NCBI GenBank assembly: GCA_046349395.1
Contig: JAXMCK010000004.1
Coordinates: forward strand, 748,173 to 812,172
DNA length: 64,000 nucleotides
From: Geminicoccaceae bacterium
GTDB taxonomy: Bacteria; Pseudomonadota; Alphaproteobacteria; Geminicoccales; Geminicoccaceae
Reading direction: 5' to 3'
This document shows positions 33,594-39,662 of the stretch, in pieces. How positions within the stretch are numbered: position 1 is the stretch's first letter; every line of letters begins with the position of its first letter. Under the pieces are notes generated by a model, which worked only from the letters and a program-made list of their open reading frames with translations, was not told the origin of the DNA and searched no databases. The position numbers and the translations under genes are program-made.

Positions 33594-34130
33594 CTACCGT
33601 CCGGGCGCGGCAATCTTCCCGGCCACCTCGGCCAGCGTCGCGGCGTCCGACCATTGGTCACGCAACGGTGGCTCGTTCAGCTTCTCGTCGAGCTTCCGAT
33701 CCGCCTCGAAGCCGTTTGCACGGCGGAGATAGACCGCACCCGCCTTGAAGGGCTCGGCCCCGCCGGGGCCGATGCCCGTCGCCATCTCGACGACGGCGAC
33801 GAGGTCCTGCTGGCCGTCGCCGTCGATGTCCGCGAGCCTGAGCCCGTCCGTGCCGACATAGGCCCAGCTGTCCGACCCGGGCAGCGGCGGGAAGCGGTAG
33901 ATCGGCTGGCCATCCGTGCCCTGGAGAACGATCTCCGCCGTGGGCGGGCTCGCGTCCGGCTGCTCGATCACGGCGATCCGGACCTCGCCGAAGCCGGGCA
34001 GCATCGCATCCAGCCCGTTCGTGCCGTCGTCGCCGCCGGCCCGGAGCGAGGAGGGAAGCAGAACCGCCAGGACGGCGCCGACAGCCGCCGCACGACCGAG
34101 ACGGCAGGCTCTCTCAGCTCGGGAAGGCAT
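33594..34130 (-). CDS. Secreted hypothetical protein with one FG-GAP/VCBS-like Ca-binding motif
   Basis: Signal peptide (AAAVGAVLAVLLPSSLRA) and a DIDGDGQQDLV motif. The start overlaps the muramidase stop by 17 nt. Confidence 0.55.
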   Translation of the reverse strand: MPSRAERACRLGRAAAVGAVLAVLLPSSLRAGGDDGTNGLDAMLPGFGEVRIAVIEQPDASPPTAEIVLQGTDGQPIYRFPPLPGSDSWAYVGTDGLRLADIDGDGQQDLVAVVEMATGIGPGGAEPFKAGAVYLRRANGFEADRKLDEKLNEPPLRDQWSDAATLAEVAGKIAAPGR

Positions 34131-34896
34131 CGGCCATGAGCTTCGTCTCCGTCGCTTCGTCCAGCTCGCCGGTGGCCGGCAGCTTCGCCTTGGTCTGGTA
34201 CTCGATCAGGGCACCGCGCGTAAGGCGGCCGCGCAGGCCGTCGACGGCACCGGGCTTGTAGCCGAGATAGGTGAGCGCCACCTGGACGGCCCGCAGGCCC
34301 AGGTCGGGCAGCATGCGCTTTGACTTCTCGAACGCGGCGGCCAGCCGGTTGTCGTAGTCGTTCTTGCGGAAGTCCGGGCCGTTGTAGGCGGCGGCAAAGG
34401 TACCCCAGTCGCGCCGCTGGATGCCGATACGGCATTTCGGCGTGGCCATGATGAAGCGGCTCAGCGCATCGAGCTGCCGGTCCTCGCTCTCGACGAAGGC
34501 CGTCACCATCTCGTTGACACTCTCGAACCCGACGACGCGGAAATTGAAGCCCATCACCTGCGGCAGGCCCCAGGAGGCGCTGCGCAGCGCCGCGTCCTCG
34601 TCGAGCTTCATCGCCTTCTCGAGCCGCGGATACTCGTCGGCCCCGCCTGCATAGCCGCCGGGCTTGCGGTTCGAGATGTCGGGGTTCTTCGCATCGAACT
34701 TCCCGTCGGTCCGACGGCTGAAGATGTGCCGCTCAAACAGGATCTGCGGCCGCCGGTCGGGCAGGAAGCCAAAGCCTCGGGTCTCGACCGTGAGCACGGC
34801 CCAGATCTCGGGCTCGCCGACGCCCAAGGTCTCGCAGACGGCACTCATGCCCTTCGAGGAGATCGGCAGACCCTTGCCGACGAAATTCTGCGCCAT
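34114..34896 (-). CDS. Endolysin-like N-acetylmuramidase (DUF3380-type) with C-terminal peptidoglycan-binding domain
   Basis: EPEIWAVLTVETRGFGFL...ILFERHIFSRRT...SWGLPQVMGFN...AAAYNGPDF is followed by a PG_binding_1-like VQVALTYLGYKPGAVDGLRGRLTRGALIEYQ. The ATG at 34896 was chosen. There is no signal peptide. Confidence 0.8.
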   Translation of the reverse strand: MAQNFVGKGLPISSKGMSAVCETLGVGEPEIWAVLTVETRGFGFLPDRRPQILFERHIFSRRTDGKFDAKNPDISNRKPGGYAGGADEYPRLEKAMKLDEDAALRSASWGLPQVMGFNFRVVGFESVNEMVTAFVESEDRQLDALSRFIMATPKCRIGIQRRDWGTFAAAYNGPDFRKNDYDNRLAAAFEKSKRMLPDLGLRAVQVALTYLGYKPGAVDGLRGRLTRGALIEYQTKAKLPATGELDEATETKLMADAFPS

Positions 34897-35059
34897 CGTC
34901 CCACTCCCCACGATGCGTCCGGCCAAACCGTAGTCCGACCCGGCGGGGAAGGCTGTGATCGAACGCACAACCGCTGGTGTGGAGAGCGCGGGCGACTCTT
35001 GGCCTTGTTGCCGGCGCCTGCACCGGTATGTGCCGCCCATGGTGCGTGCAGCGGCAGCC

Positions 35060-35075
35060 TGTGAGCTTCGTCACG
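35060..35075 (+). promoter_or_regulatory. CRP/FNR-family-type box TGTGAGCTTCGTCACG upstream of cassette 1
   Basis: 9/10 match to TGTGA-N6-TCACA, centred 70.5 bp upstream of the A1 ATG. It lies in the divergent region shared with the muramidase gene. Confidence 0.4.
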
Positions 35076-35137
35076 GATCGACGCACGGCACCGCCCTAGT
35101 CTCTGCTATATCGGACGGGACAACAGGGAGAACCGAC

Positions 35138-35512
35138 ATGCGCCGGCTGGTATTGGGAGCGCTTCTTCTCGCCGCGGCACCCGGAGCCCGGGCGGAGATC
35201 TTCGCCTCGCCGCCGACGTTCCAGGCGGGGCAGACCTCGATCGACTGCGCCATCACCAATGGCGGCGCCTCCGCGGTGACCCTCAGCGGCGCCAAGGTGA
35301 CGGCGGAGGTCGGGCCGACCTTCGACCTGCCGCTTGCCGGCAATACCTGCCCGTCCAAGCTGCAGCCGGGCAGCTACTGCCACTGGCAGGCGCTGCTCAG
35401 GACCGGCGGCGCCCATGTCTGCCGCATCACCGTGTCCAGCAGGACGAACCTTCGCGGGCGAATGGAGATCGGGGCCGGGAACGACACGCTCGTCATGGAG
35501 GAGATGCGATGA
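35138..35512 (+). CDS. Small secreted four-Cys protein, type A, copy 1 (124 aa)
   Basis: GGGAGA RBS 7 nt upstream. Signal peptide MRRLVLGALLLAAAPGARA|E. Four conserved Cys. Ends ...MEEMR. Confidence 0.75.
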   Translation: MRRLVLGALLLAAAPGARAEIFASPPTFQAGQTSIDCAITNGGASAVTLSGAKVTAEVGPTFDLPLAGNTCPSKLQPGSYCHWQALLRTGGAHVCRITVSSRTNLRGRMEIGAGNDTLVMEEMR

Positions 35513-35946
35513 CGCGCCCGCTCGGTGTCTCGGCCAGCCGGCTCGGCCTCGCCGTCGCTCTCGCCGTTCTAACGGCGGTCGCGTCGCCGGTGCGGGCAGA
35601 GGTGCTGATCTCGCCTTTGACCGAAGGCGGGATCGGCCCCGCGGTTTCCGACCAGGTCGTCTGCTACCTGGCCAATGTCGGCTCATCGTCGATCACGGTG
35701 TCGAACCCGAAGATCCTGAACCAGAACGCCCGCGCGGTGCCGCTGTCGATCAACACCTGCGGCCGCTCGCTCGCCGGCGGCCGCATCTGTGTGTGGGCCG
35801 TGAACCAGTCGGGAGCCGACCTCGGCGACTGGCATCTCTGCCGGGTCGACCTCTCCAGCAAGACCAACGCGCGCGGCAGCATGGACCTGCGCAAACGCAA
35901 CGGCAGCGGCGCTCCGAAGCGGATCTTCAGCCTCGAGATGCGCTGA
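35509..35946 (+). CDS. Small secreted four-Cys protein, type B, copy 1 (145 aa)
   Basis: ATGA overlap with the A1 stop. Signal peptide ...LAVLTAVASPVRA|E. Four conserved Cys. Ends ...SLEMR. Confidence 0.75.
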   Translation: MTRPLGVSASRLGLAVALAVLTAVASPVRAEVLISPLTEGGIGPAVSDQVVCYLANVGSSSITVSNPKILNQNARAVPLSINTCGRSLAGGRICVWAVNQSGADLGDWHLCRVDLSSKTNARGSMDLRKRNGSGAPKRIFSLEMR

Positions 35947-36147
35947 CCTATCGACTGTTCGCCCTCGCGCATCCATCAGCTGGCCGTGCCCGGCGGTGAC
36001 GGTGTCGAGCTTTCGGGGACCGACGCTGCCGGTCGCCCCCACGGTGCGGCTACTGACCCGCAGGAGGCGATCACGTGCAGCTGAAGAGCCGTCCGGGCGC
36101 CTTGCGAGAGGCGTTCGTGGGGCCTACGGCAGATGGAGGGGGTGCTA

Positions 36148-36163
36148 TGTGAGCTTCGTCACG
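36148..36163 (+). promoter_or_regulatory. CRP/FNR-family-type box TGTGAGCTTCGTCACG upstream of cassette 2
   Basis: Identical 16-mer to the box at 35060-35075, centred 73.5 bp upstream of the A2 ATG. Confidence 0.4.
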
Positions 36164-36228
36164 GACGCTCCTCGTGATGCCGCTAGATCTCGTTCCAGCG
36201 ACCATTGGCGCAGAGGGGGAGAGTCGAC

Positions 36229-36603
36229 ATGCGGTGGCCGGCACTCGGGACACTTCTTCTCCTGGCGGCACCGGCGTCGGGTGCCGACATCCTGGCCTCG
36301 CGACCGACCTTCCGGACCGGACAGAAGCAGGTCTTCTGCAGCCTCTCCAATGTCGGCTCGACCGCCGTGACGATCAGCAATCCCAAGGTGACGGCGGAGA
36401 TCGGGCCGGCCTTCGACCTGCCCTTCGCCGTCAACAACTGCGCGTCCACACTGCGTCCCGGGAAGAACTGCAGCTGGCTCGCCTACATCAGGACCGGCGG
36501 CGCGCATTTCTGCCGCGTCACCGTCTCCAGCAAGAGTGGCGTCCGCGGCCAGATGGAGATCGCGACCTTCGAGGCTGCGCTCGCCATGGAGGAGATGCGG
36601 TGA
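36229..36603 (+). CDS. Small secreted four-Cys protein, type A, copy 2 (124 aa)
   Basis: The internal ATG is preceded by a GGGGGAGAG RBS. Signal peptide MRWPALGTLLLLAAPASGA|D. Ends ...MEEMR. Confidence 0.75.
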   Translation: MRWPALGTLLLLAAPASGADILASRPTFRTGQKQVFCSLSNVGSTAVTISNPKVTAEIGPAFDLPFAVNNCASTLRPGKNCSWLAYIRTGGAHFCRVTVSSKSGVRGQMEIATFEAALAMEEMR

Positions 36604-37028
36604 TGATGTTCCTCCCTAAATGGTCCGACGCGTCGCTGGCCGTCGGCGCCGGACTGACCGCTCTGCTCGCCATCTCGGCACCCGTTCGGGCCGAAGTGAT
36701 GGCCTCGGCACTCGCCGGCTATTCGGGCGTCAACCAGATCGTCTGCTATCTCGCCAATGCCGGCTCGTCGGCGATCACGGTTTCCGGCCCCAAGATCATG
36801 GACGCTAGTGGCACCGTGAGCACCAACACGGTCAACAGCTGCGGCAGCTCTCTGCCAGGCGGCCGCGTCTGCGTCTGGGCGGTCGATCTGCCCGCCAACA
36901 CACCGTTCGCCCGCTATCAGTGCAGGGTCGACCTGTCGAGCAAGGCGAACGCGCGCGGCAGCCTCGATCTCCGCGTCCGTGGCCTCGCTGCGGGTCCCTC
37001 GGTGGTCTTCAGCATCGACATGCGCTGA
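36603..37028 (+). CDS. Small secreted four-Cys protein, type B, copy 2 (141 aa)
   Basis: TGATG overlap with the A2 stop. Signal peptide ...LTALLAISAPVRA|E. Ends ...SIDMR. Confidence 0.75.
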   Translation: MMFLPKWSDASLAVGAGLTALLAISAPVRAEVMASALAGYSGVNQIVCYLANAGSSAITVSGPKIMDASGTVSTNTVNSCGSSLPGGRVCVWAVDLPANTPFARYQCRVDLSSKANARGSLDLRVRGLAAGPSVVFSIDMR

Positions 37029-37326
37029 CCTTCCGGCTGTCGGAGCTGGGTCGTCCGCCTCCTGGCTGCGACCATGGTCGAGGATCGGGAGCATACCCCG
37101 CTCCTAGAAATCTCGGCGATGCGCTCGAGCCGACGCGCAGCGCAGGCCACCACCCGCAAGGGCCGATCGCCTTCGCCTGAACATTCGTGCCGGTGCCTTG
37201 CGACGCGGGTCCGTAGGGCCTAGGGCAGATGGTGGCGGTGTCACGTGAGCTTCTCTCTACGGACGCTCCCCGTGGCCCCATTGGGCTCGCAGTTCAGCGA
37301 TCCTGATCGAGCGGGAGACAGCCGAC

Positions 37327-37701
37327 ATGCGGTGGGTAGCGTTCGGAACGCTTCTTCTTTTGGCAGCGCCGGCAGCGGGTGCCGACATCCTGTCCTCGCG
37401 GCCGACCTTCCGGGCGGGGCAGACCACGGTGACCTGCACCATCGTCAATGTCGGCTCCACCTTGGTGACCGTCAGCAATCCCAAGGTGGCGGCCGAGGTC
37501 GGTCCCACCTTCGACCTCCAGCTCGCGCCCAACGAGTGCCGATCCACGTTGGGCCCGACCCAGAACTGCACCTGGAACGCTGCGACGCGAACCGGCGGCG
37601 CCCATCTCTGCCGTGTCACCGTCTCCAACAAGGCCGGCCTGCGCGGCCAGATGGGGATCAGGGGCTCGGGTCTCCTCCTCGGCGCGACGGAGATGCGGTG
37701 A
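37327..37701 (+). CDS. Small secreted four-Cys protein, type A, copy 3 (124 aa)
   Basis: GGGAGA RBS. Signal peptide MRWVAFGTLLLLAAPAAGA|D. Ends ...ATEMR. Confidence 0.75.
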   Translation: MRWVAFGTLLLLAAPAAGADILSSRPTFRAGQTTVTCTIVNVGSTLVTVSNPKVAAEVGPTFDLQLAPNECRSTLGPTQNCTWNAATRTGGAHLCRVTVSNKAGLRGQMGIRGSGLLLGATEMR

Positions 37702-38117
37702 TGGCCCGGTCCTGCGCTCCATGGGGTACGCTCGCCTGGGCCGCCCTCACCGCTCTGCTGGTTCCCGGTGCCCCGGCCCGGGCCGAGGTGATGGCCTCTC
37801 CGCTGGCGAGTTCGTCCCGGGACGTCAACCAGGTGGTCTGCTATCTGGGCAACACGGGCCCATCGACGATCACGGTGACCAACCCGAAGATCCTCAACGA
37901 TACCGGTTTCGTGCTGAGCCTCTCCGTCAACAGTTGCGGCAGTTCGCTCGGGGCCGGCCGGATCTGCGTGTGGGCGACCGACCTCACCCAGTCCCCTACC
38001 CGTTATGTCTGCCGGGTCGACCTCTCCAGCAAGGCGAATGCGCGCGGCAGCATCGACCTCAGAGTCCGCACGCCGCGCGGCGATCCGACGGTGATTTCGA
38101 GCGTGGAGATGCGCTGA
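37701..38117 (+). CDS. Small secreted four-Cys protein, type B, copy 3 (138 aa)
   Basis: TGATG overlap with the A3 stop. Signal peptide ...LTALLVPGAPARA|E. Ends ...SVEMR. Confidence 0.75.
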   Translation: MARSCAPWGTLAWAALTALLVPGAPARAEVMASPLASSSRDVNQVVCYLGNTGPSTITVTNPKILNDTGFVLSLSVNSCGSSLGAGRICVWATDLTQSPTRYVCRVDLSSKANARGSIDLRVRTPRGDPTVISSVEMR

Positions 38118-38168: not shown

Positions 38169-39662
38169 CTACCCGAGCGCGATCCGGTGCATCTCCTGCT
38201 TCTGGCCCACGCCCTTGAGCTGGACATAAGCGCGCGAGGTCGGGCGGCTGCCGACGAGGTCGGCCACACCGGGTGCGCTCATCACGGCCTCGGTGACGCA
38301 GATCTCGTCGACCCCGGCCAGGCCCTGGACACGGGCGGCGATGTTCACGTCCTGGCCGAAATAGTCGATCCGCTCGTTGAGCGTCACCGCGATCGCTTGG
38401 CCCTTGTGGATGCCGATCTTGAGGCCCAGCGGGCGTGCCGCCGTGCGGTTGAAGCGGGCCAGTTCCTCGACCATCGCGATCCCGGCGGCGACGGCGTCCC
38501 GCGGCCGGTCGAAGGCCGCCATCACGGCATCGCCGATCGTCTTGACGAGGGCACCGCCTTGCTGGCGGACGATCCGGTTCAGGATCTCGAAATGCTGCCG
38601 GACCAGGAAGTAGGCGTTGAGATCGCCGACGCTGTCGTAGAGCGGGGTCGATTCCTTCAGGTCGGTGAAGAGGTAGGTGATGTCCGAGACGGTGAGCCCC
38701 TCGCCCTCGTCGACCAGCTGGCCCTTGTAGAGTTCGGCGAAGCTGGGGGTCAGCAGCAGCCGCTTGCCGGACAGGAACGGCTCGTACGCGACACGATGCG
38801 GCGCGAAGCCCGGCGGGTACTGGACGAACCAGAGCCTTCCCCGCTTGTCCATGCGGTTCTCGATCTCGAAGCGATGCCGGCCCGGCCGGAGGTCGGCCGT
38901 CTGGTTGAAGACGAAGCGACCGTCACCCAGCACCATCTCGCGCGGCGCGGTCGGCCGGTCCGGCACGAGGAAGCGCCCGTCGTCGAGTCGGATCGACGTG
39001 GTCTGCAGGCCGACTCCTTCGCCGTCGACGAAGAAGACCAGCAGCAGCTTGTGGCTCAGATCCAGGATCTCGAACCGCCCGGCGGTGACGTCGAGCTCGA
39101 AGGTGCGTTTCTCGCGAGCGCCGAGATCGGCGAACTGGCGCGACAGCAGGGCCACGATCTGTGCCGGCGTCATGCCGTGCGGCGGCACGAAGCCCTTCGC
39201 AAAGTTGTAGCGCAGGTAATAGTCCTCGACCGGCAAGGTCTCCGGATGCCGGTAGACGATGTCCCGCACTTTGTCTGCGACGGTGAAGGCGACCTGGATG
39301 TAGTCGTCCAGCGCCACGTCGTTGATGGCATTGCAGAAGGCGCACTGGAACCTGGGATGGACCTGGTTCAGCTCGCGGAAGCCGCCGGCGACCTGCGGGC
39401 AGTAGGCGCAGAGTACCAACCAGTCCATCTGGAACAGACCGACCTTGGCCGCGTGCAGGAACAGGTCGATCGCGTCGGTCTCGGTGAGGCCCGCTTCGGC
39501 CGCATACCGGATCGGGTTGACCCGGAACAGATCGTAGTCGTCCGCCAGCCGGACGAACGTCGCCAGCGCCTCCAGCGTCTCCGGTGGCCAGCTACGGGCC
39601 GCGGAGAGTTGCGCCAGACTGTTCTCGAGGAACTGCTCGTCGACCCTCGAGGGCTGGCTCAT
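38169..39662 (-). CDS. Class III adenylate/guanylate cyclase with large N-terminal domain containing a CxxC...CxxC zinc-ribbon-like motif (DUF5939-like)
   Basis: C-terminal CHD: ITYLFTDLKEST, LVKTIGDAVMAAF, YFGQDVNIAARVQ. The N-terminal ~300 aa contain CAYC-x18-CAFC. Confidence 0.85.
   Translation of the reverse strand: MSQPSRVDEQFLENSLAQLSAARSWPPETLEALATFVRLADDYDLFRVNPIRYAAEAGLTETDAIDLFLHAAKVGLFQMDWLVLCAYCPQVAGGFRELNQVHPRFQCAFCNAINDVALDDYIQVAFTVADKVRDIVYRHPETLPVEDYYLRYNFAKGFVPPHGMTPAQIVALLSRQFADLGAREKRTFELDVTAGRFEILDLSHKLLLVFFVDGEGVGLQTTSIRLDDGRFLVPDRPTAPREMVLGDGRFVFNQTADLRPGRHRFEIENRMDKRGRLWFVQYPPGFAPHRVAYEPFLSGKRLLLTPSFAELYKGQLVDEGEGLTVSDITYLFTDLKESTPLYDSVGDLNAYFLVRQHFEILNRIVRQQGGALVKTIGDAVMAAFDRPRDAVAAGIAMVEELARFNRTAARPLGLKIGIHKGQAIAVTLNERIDYFGQDVNIAARVQGLAGVDEICVTEAVMSAPGVADLVGSRPTSRAYVQLKGVGQKQEMHRIALG

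Follow-up and report, generated by a model that had tools for sequence, protein, structure and literature searches.

The 64,000-nt stretch analysed here (the window) corresponds to C4:748173-812172 in the genome of a Geminicoccaceae bacterium (G000; assembly GCA_046349395.1, contig JAXMCK010000004.1), which comprises 5.19 Mb at 68% GC and is 90% complete; a PolA similarity of 88-92% assigns it to this family. It carries three consecutive two-gene cassettes, A1-B1, A2-B2 and A3-B3, coding for small secreted four-cysteine proteins. Cassettes 1 and 2, together with a divergently transcribed muramidase gene, are each preceded by a palindromic box of the TGTGA-N6-TCACA type, and these three boxes are likely to be operators for a regulator of the CRP family. 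An initial annotation of this DNA had proposed that CRP-type operators lie before cassettes 1 and 2 and have been lost in cassette 3, a proposal that is supported by an excess of the motif, by a candidate regulator with a box of its own, and by a spacing of the class II type.

Boxes 1 and 2 consist of the same letters, TGTGAGCTTCGTCACG, without a single mismatch between the two places (Table 1). Each agrees with TGTGA-N6-TCACA at 9 of 10 positions, the single deviation being the outermost one (A16 to G), and their centres lie 70.5 and 73.5 nt upstream of the A1 and A2 start codons, respectively; identity, consensus score and distances all came out as the initial annotation had given them. The third box, TGTGATCGAACGCACA, had escaped that annotation. 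It also scores 9 of 10 and is situated within the 241-bp intergenic region between A1 and the divergent muramidase gene, 106 nt from box 1 (centre to centre) and 65.5 nt upstream of the muramidase ATG. Position 34896 is most likely the muramidase start, since this ATG follows a GGGGAG Shine-Dalgarno sequence and since, in the long reading frame, the Pfam domain is not reached until residue 78. All three boxes exhibit the features of a CRP-type operator, namely a 16-bp symmetric core, a 6-bp spacer and an intact GTG-N8-CAC. Sites with at most one mismatch occur genome-wide at a density of approximately 0.5 per 64 kb, so three boxes within 1.2 kb, two of them independent, represent a local concentration.

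Allowing up to three mismatches, the 16-mer TGTGAGCTTCGTCACG has five matches in the window where 0.77 are expected, a number reached by none of the shuffled sequences. The whole-genome scan for this 16-mer, which had been suggested earlier, returned six near-matches elsewhere, five of them inside coding genes and the sixth an isolated match with two mismatches; thus, TGTGAGCTTCGTCACG is not a dispersed repeat. The exact identity between boxes 1 and 2 extends over 18 nt (..GGA). In public collections, this 18-mer has 17 matches in metagenome contigs and 23 in genome contigs, all from unrelated taxa and with no A/B homologue nearby, and these matches are due to chance.

At the scale of the genome, TGTGA-N6-TCACA occurs as 6 perfect and 36 one-mismatch sites, compared with 0 perfect and 8-20 one-mismatch sites for control palindromes of the same composition. 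Its ratio of observed to expected sites (6 vs 0.18) is the highest among the 1024 palindromes of the 5-N6-5 form. The second most over-represented palindrome is the FNR/FixK box ATTGA-N6-TCAAT, which indicates that the ranking recovers real factor motifs; the third is GTACA-N6-TGTAC (4 vs 0.22 expected). According to a crude gene call, in which 80% of the genome is coding, 24 of the 42 sites are intergenic. Many are flanked by T/A-rich sequence, as in TTTTGTGAGAAAACTCACAAAGT, and the intergenic one-mismatch sites deviate mainly at positions 1/16 and 5/12, so that the GTG-N8-CAC core is kept. Furthermore, 50 of 60 family genomes contain perfect sites, with up to 35 in a genome, compared with 0-2 for the reversed control. 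The genome-wide over-representation of the motif and its enrichment in intergenic DNA strongly suggest that a regulon using TGTGA-N6-TCACA exists in this genome. The genes downstream of the sites are of mixed function and include an RraA-like aldolase, a choloylglycine-hydrolase-family protein, a GHMP kinase, a sugar dehydrogenase, an NMT1-type binding protein and several secreted proteins without assigned function.

A profile search for CRP/FNR-family regulators, also suggested by the initial annotation, identified six proteins combining cNMP_binding and HTH_Crp_2 domains, all encoded outside the window; the same search found no CRP-family gene within it, as had been stated. In E. coli CAP, residues R180, E181 and R185 of the recognition helix RETVGR read TGTGA (PMC10187061). 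The candidate regulator encoded at C4:603966-604664 carries the helix THREAVSR, two of the remaining five proteins have dissimilar recognition helices, and the other three are listed in Table 1. The solved structures nearest to the C4 regulator are 7pza, a putative cyclic AMP (cAMP)-binding CRP-family activator with the helix SRPKVNR (E = 8e-19), and 4ev0, a CRP-family regulator with the helix RETVSR. Since its score against the NCBIfam CRP equivalog is 58 bits, far below the cut-off of 266, the protein is a member of the CRP family and not an orthologue of E. coli CRP. Its gene is flanked by a ZnuA-like gene and a sugar dehydrogenase gene; the spacer that follows the ZnuA-like gene holds a perfect box, TGTGAGATCCGTCACA, centred 120.5 nt ahead of the start codon of the regulator.

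This box is conserved along with the regulator. Orthologues of the C4 protein (34-59% identity, nearly all with THREAVSR) are encoded in 42 of 60 family genomes, and a box with at most one mismatch stands 96-184 nt before the start codon in 12 of 29 orthologue loci from other genera, compared with one such site in the 92 kb of remaining locus sequence. Several of these sites, for example TGTGAGCTTGGTCACA, are close to the window box; two share the outermost A-to-G deviation, and the outermost position also varies in sites such as TGTGACGATTGTCACG. Because of the conserved box ahead of its own gene, the C4 protein is the probable binder of the window boxes, an assignment that we favour by a modest degree.

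The spacing between the boxes and the adjacent promoter-like elements is regular. We define the offset as the number of nucleotides from the box centre to the first base of a TA-starting hexamer. On the gene side, such hexamers (TA[AC][AG]G[CTG]; TAAGGT, TACGGT, TACGGC, TAAAGC and similar) occur at 27.5-29.5 nt in 8 of the 12 orthologue promoters, and TA dinucleotide starts around the 42 sites of the genome peak at 29.5 nt, with 7 against a mean of 1.8 per offset. The three window boxes have -10-like hexamers at offsets of 28.5-29.5 nt (Table 1). TACGGT, which belongs to the third box, is found at the same offset in the promoter of one regulator orthologue (L073). In E. coli numbering, 29.5 nt from box centre to -10 hexamer places a site at -41.5, the class II position of CAP promoters. 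A scan of the region for consensus sigma-70 promoters returned no promoter-like site, so that none of the three box promoters has a recognisable -35 element. The predicted leaders measure 24-33 nt, Shine-Dalgarno sequences included, and with a class I position (-61.5) transcription would start inside the Shine-Dalgarno sequence. The initial annotation had envisaged an activator site just upstream of a promoter. The activator-type reading is supported, but the box most likely overlaps the -35 position, with its centre near -41.5, and we regard class II activation as the rather more probable mode of action of the boxes.

In the mechanism that we propose, a dimeric CRP-family factor, most likely the product of C4:603966-604664, would be loaded with a nucleotide, probably cAMP, and would bind TGTGA-N6-TCAC(A/G) centred approximately 41 bp upstream of the transcription start. 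The bound factor would make up for the absent -35 element and bring RNA polymerase to the weak -10 hexamers, switching on A1-B1, A2-B2 and, in the opposite direction, the muramidase/FG-GAP pair, each with a leader of about 24-33 nt. Cassette 3, without a right half-site and a -10-like hexamer, would be read through from cassette 2 or stand outside CRP control.

The boxes might instead be genuine protein sites for another factor, such as the C5:53025 paralogue or a different palindrome-binding protein, or else operators of a repressor. With six proteins of this architecture in the genome, two of which have R-E-x-x-S-R helices, and with the sign of regulation deduced from spacing alone, such an option has some basis. 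Nevertheless, it is only the THREAVSR group that has a conserved box before its own gene, the surroundings of the C5 paralogue contain no box at up to one mismatch, and the absence of -35-like hexamers from promoters 1 and 2 fits dependence on an activator. We therefore judge this alternative unlikely.

A less probable explanation still is that boxes 1 and 2 have no function and owe their identity to tandem duplication, as a neutral relic, or to a short patch of gene conversion. That the three units arose by duplication is clear, homology can still be traced between their leaders over approximately 130 nt, and unit 3 shows that the site can decay. However, the exact run of 18 nt stands in leaders 1 and 2 although their identity over 269 aligned columns is only 55% (P = 0.0017 when alignment columns are shuffled), compared with longest exact runs of just 15-17 in cassette coding regions that are 65-73% identical. 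Moreover, this island of identity coincides exactly with the most over-represented palindrome of the genome, and the independent third box displays the same geometry 106 nt away. Taken together, these points leave the neutral explanation a small probability.

The decayed site of unit 3, CGTGAGCTTCTCTCTACG, conforms to the initial description: the left half-site and both flanks are kept, and the right half-site has changed from GTCAC to TCTCTAC, so that the remnant no longer has the features of a CRP-type operator. No TA hexamer was found downstream of it. The change has created a palindrome, TCACGTGA, with a CACGTG core, and the leader block ACGGACGCTCC.CGTG is common to units 2 and 3; both had been pointed out before and both are present. 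Uncoupling of cassette 3 could have come about through a 2-nt indel that destroyed exactly one half-site, together with loss of the -10 hexamer. A block of approximately 60 nt that precedes box 2 and the unit 3 remnant (36085-36147 and 37180-37243; ..CCGG.GCCTTGCGA....GGGCCTA.GGCAGATGG..) shows about 75% identity between these two units and can be made out in part in unit 1; it may represent residual homology or an additional upstream element.

If transcription started upstream of the box, the motif would lie in a longer 5' untranslated region and might form a small RNA hairpin. The inverted repeat can indeed pair as a stem of 5-6 pairs, which appears in the minimum-energy fold of leader 1. 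The fold of leader 2 does not contain this hairpin, though, and the leaders fold no better than shuffled sequences (z -0.1 to +0.45) and have no Rfam match at E values up to 1. In addition, the motif precedes unrelated genes throughout the genome, as expected of a DNA site. An RNA element is thus very improbable. The idea of a sigma-54 promoter with the conserved GTGAGCTT as its -12 part, prompted by GG-N10-GC in all three units including unit 3 (cGGCAGcctgtgaGCtt, gGGTGCtatgtgaGCtt and cGGTGTcacgtgaGCtt), can practically be dismissed, given that the -12 part has no conserved TTGC, the -24 part matches TGGCAC-N5-TTGC poorly, and no Sigma54_DBD (PF04552) was found in this 90% complete genome. 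As a separate observation, one relative from the family (L091) encodes a sigma-54-type activator.

Some observations, several of them on related loci, speak against CRP control of the cassettes. The genome encodes seven more A/B paralogues (a pair of A and B, a lone gene and four genes in a row), and no box precedes any of them, the only match at up to two mismatches being a two-mismatch site before the fourth C5 gene. The A/B pair found once on a metagenome contig (L023) likewise has no box in its upstream sequence, which was read by eye and not by a scripted scan. Box control is consequently not universal in the A/B family. An orthologous cassette array was not found in other genomes, which precludes phylogenetic footprinting of the boxes. 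The only near-identical copy, a 2317-nt Logan contig (L022, SRR26348423_740987) with cassettes 2 and 3, has identical leaders and an A2 protein differing from that of the window at one residue; it appears to stem from the same strain or a very close organism present in the sequenced sample and, for that reason, does not help with footprinting. As for the regulator, no box stands upstream of its distant homologues (L026-L053), which belong to Burkholderiales and other groups, the C5:53025 paralogue with its RE..SR helix is an alternative candidate binder, and in the promoter of the C4 regulator itself the class II offset on the gene side is not occupied by a clear hexamer. Finally, the -10-like hexamers are weak, and the offset statistics derive from small numbers. 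On the opposite side of the regulator's box, where there is only a doubtful reading frame, a TAGGTT stands at 29.5 nt.

Homologues of the A and B proteins were not found in 60 relatives and are encoded in 6 of 106 family genomes, as single genes only. Among the ten A/B-homologue loci of family genomes, three (L174, L175 and L176) exhibit TGTG-N8-CACA 66-135 nt before the ATG, against a background of 0.0016 per 200 nt; L174 and L176 look orthologous, so that these amount to approximately two independent cases. Hexamers starting with TA accompany two of them, TAGCTT at 29.5 nt in L175 and, at 27.5 nt in L176, the same TAGATC that follows box 2.

Regarding known systems, the arrangement resembles that of E. 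coli CAP at class II promoters of the galP1 type (-41.5) in its 16-bp TGTGA-N6-TCACA core, in the R, E and R base-contacting residues that are kept in the regulator (PMC10187061), in the distance of about 29 nt between box and -10-like hexamer without a -35 element, and in the FGE..RSA cassette. It differs in that the regulator is only distantly related to CAP (58 vs 266 bits), in the host, an alphaproteobacterium of 68% GC with degenerate -10 hexamers, TA(A/C)GG(T/C), and in the targets, which for CAP are catabolic operons and here would be a muramidase and secreted proteins without assigned function. CgrA of Rhodospirillum centenum, which acts in cyst development, is likewise an alphaproteobacterial CRP homologue with the same perfect box by its own gene, a cyclase-rich genome and a heterogeneous regulon. 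Footprinting of this cyclic GMP (cGMP)-dependent protein has located its site, a perfect TGTGA-N6-TCACA, upstream of the operon to which its gene belongs (PMC4681086). The phosphate-binding cassette carries RS in CAP, which responds to cAMP, and RT in CgrA, which in addition has a longer nucleotide-binding domain and an operon with guanylyl cyclases (PMC10187061). The C4 regulator, with KRSA in its cassette and no adjacent cyclase, is not of the CgrA type; its RS pair makes it more CAP-like than CgrA-like, and its effector is probably cAMP. A family-genome site identical to the box of the R. centenum cgrA operon was also followed up and discarded as a lead, because it lies upstream of a gene for a sigma-54-type activator and not of a cgrA operon.

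With Clr of Sinorhizobium meliloti (cAMP/cGMP), the present system shares an alphaproteobacterial host and many class III cyclases, which here too would feed one CRP-family protein in control of secreted or envelope functions. We take 7pza to be the solved structure of Clr, going by the title of an mBio paper and not by the PDB label, and its helix SRPKVNR differs from the HREAVSR of the C4 regulator. Clr binds TGTT-N8-AACA, refined as HGTYHC-N4-GRWACA (PMC10187061), whereas the boxes described here have G, not a pyrimidine, at position 4 and are therefore not Clr-type operators.

The mechanism is a textbook one, an ordinary gene switch, and it is the particular regulon and its targets that are undescribed; a literature search returned nothing on regulation by cyclic nucleotides in Geminicoccaceae. 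This alphaproteobacterial family has hardly been studied, and most of its members are uncultured. What emerges for it is a first testable outline of a cyclic-nucleotide/CRP regulon, made up of the motif, the candidate regulator with its conserved box, a promoter architecture of class II and some two dozen promoters as candidate targets. The outline also offers a regulatory handle on a secreted four-cysteine family without assigned function and on an orphan muramidase. More speculatively, and in our opinion improbably, the array could embody regulatory divergence after tandem duplication, in which one cyclic-nucleotide/CRP switch co-activates the cell-wall muramidase and two pairs of novel, Ig-like four-cysteine proteins and the third pair has been uncoupled. 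If this were true, and if the proteins acted with the muramidase in envelope remodelling or in dormancy or development, comparable to the part of CgrA in cysts, it would constitute a new cyclic-nucleotide-controlled envelope module in Geminicoccaceae.

Table 1. Features of the window (plain positions) and of the rest of the genome (positions with a contig prefix).
Feature	Position	Strand	Remarks
Box 1, TGTGAGCTTCGTCACG	35060-35075		centre 35067.5; A1 ATG at 35138
Box 2, TGTGAGCTTCGTCACG	36148-36163		centre 36155.5; A2 ATG at 36229
Third box, TGTGATCGAACGCACA	34954-34969		centre 34961.5
Degenerate remnant, unit 3, CGTGAGCTTCTCTCTACG	37244-37261		left half-site and flanks kept
Palindrome, unit 3, TCACGTGA	37241-37248		CACGTG core
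-10-like hexamer TAGTCT	35097-35102	+	29.5 nt from box 1 centre; predicted start ~35109; leader ~29 nt
-10-like hexamer TAGATC	36184-36189	+	28.5 nt from box 2 centre; predicted start ~36196; leader ~33 nt
-10-like hexamer TACGGT	34927-34932	-	29.5 nt from third-box centre, towards muramidase; predicted start ~34920
Cassette 1	35138-35946	+	A1 35138-35512; B1 35509-35946; small secreted four-cysteine proteins
Cassette 2	36229-37028	+	A2 36229-36603; B2 36603-37028
Cassette 3	37327-38117	+	A3 37327-37701; B3 37701-38117; no intact box in front
Divergent unit (muramidase and FG-GAP protein)	33594-34896	-	probable target of the third box
Muramidase gene	34114-34896	-	PG_binding_1 domain
FG-GAP-motif secreted protein gene	33594-34130	-	overlaps the muramidase gene
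Short class III cyclase, 242 aa	32598-33326	-	Pfam Guanylate_cyc, 24.4 bits (cut-off 21.9), a narrow pass
Class III cyclase with DUF5939	38169-39662	-	Pfam Guanylate_cyc; converges on cassette 3
Candidate regulator, 233 aa	C4:603966-604664		~180 kb upstream of the window; FGEVAAIDGGKRSA (FGE..RSA cassette); helix THREAVSR
Box of candidate regulator, TGTGAGATCCGTCACA	C4:603838-603853		perfect
Regulator paralogue	C3:879		helix ETVSR; N-terminal cysteine cluster; FNR-like
Regulator paralogue	C3:132		helix EVLSR
Regulator paralogue	near C5:53025		helix REVVSR, CAP-type R-E-x-x-x-R; no RSA motif
A/B paralogue locus	C3:764001-764815		
A/B paralogue locus	C3:766648-767103		
A/B paralogue locus	C4:458841-459206	-	
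A/B paralogue locus	C5:649043-650937		

The A and B proteins have no family match in Pfam, and A1 has a sub-threshold NCBIfam match to a choice-of-anchor D domain. An AlphaFold model of B1, built on an alignment of eight sequences, predicts a seven-strand immunoglobulin-like beta sandwich (predicted local distance difference test, pLDDT, 77; predicted template modelling score, pTM, 0.67), for which a Foldseek search of the PDB returned nothing significant (best E-value 0.04). No intrinsic terminators were found between the cassettes, a result that is uninformative at 68% GC.

Two class III nucleotidyl cyclase genes do flank the region, as the initial annotation had noted, and both products match Guanylate_cyc, the 242-aa one narrowly. 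The further argument drawn from them, that this bracketing points to a cyclic-nucleotide input, is weak, because the genome contains 38 class III cyclase domain matches and no box precedes either flanking gene. The nearest cyclase domains on contig C4 lie more than 170 kb from the C4 regulator gene. Cyclases are clustered in places, for example at C3:357810/359766/365126 and C7:239176/241222, and the gene for a stand-alone cNMP-binding protein (C4:987666) adjoins a cyclase gene (C4:988688). As in the window, a cyclase gene lies downstream of the paralogous cassette at C3:764001-764815, at a distance of approximately 1.8 kb.

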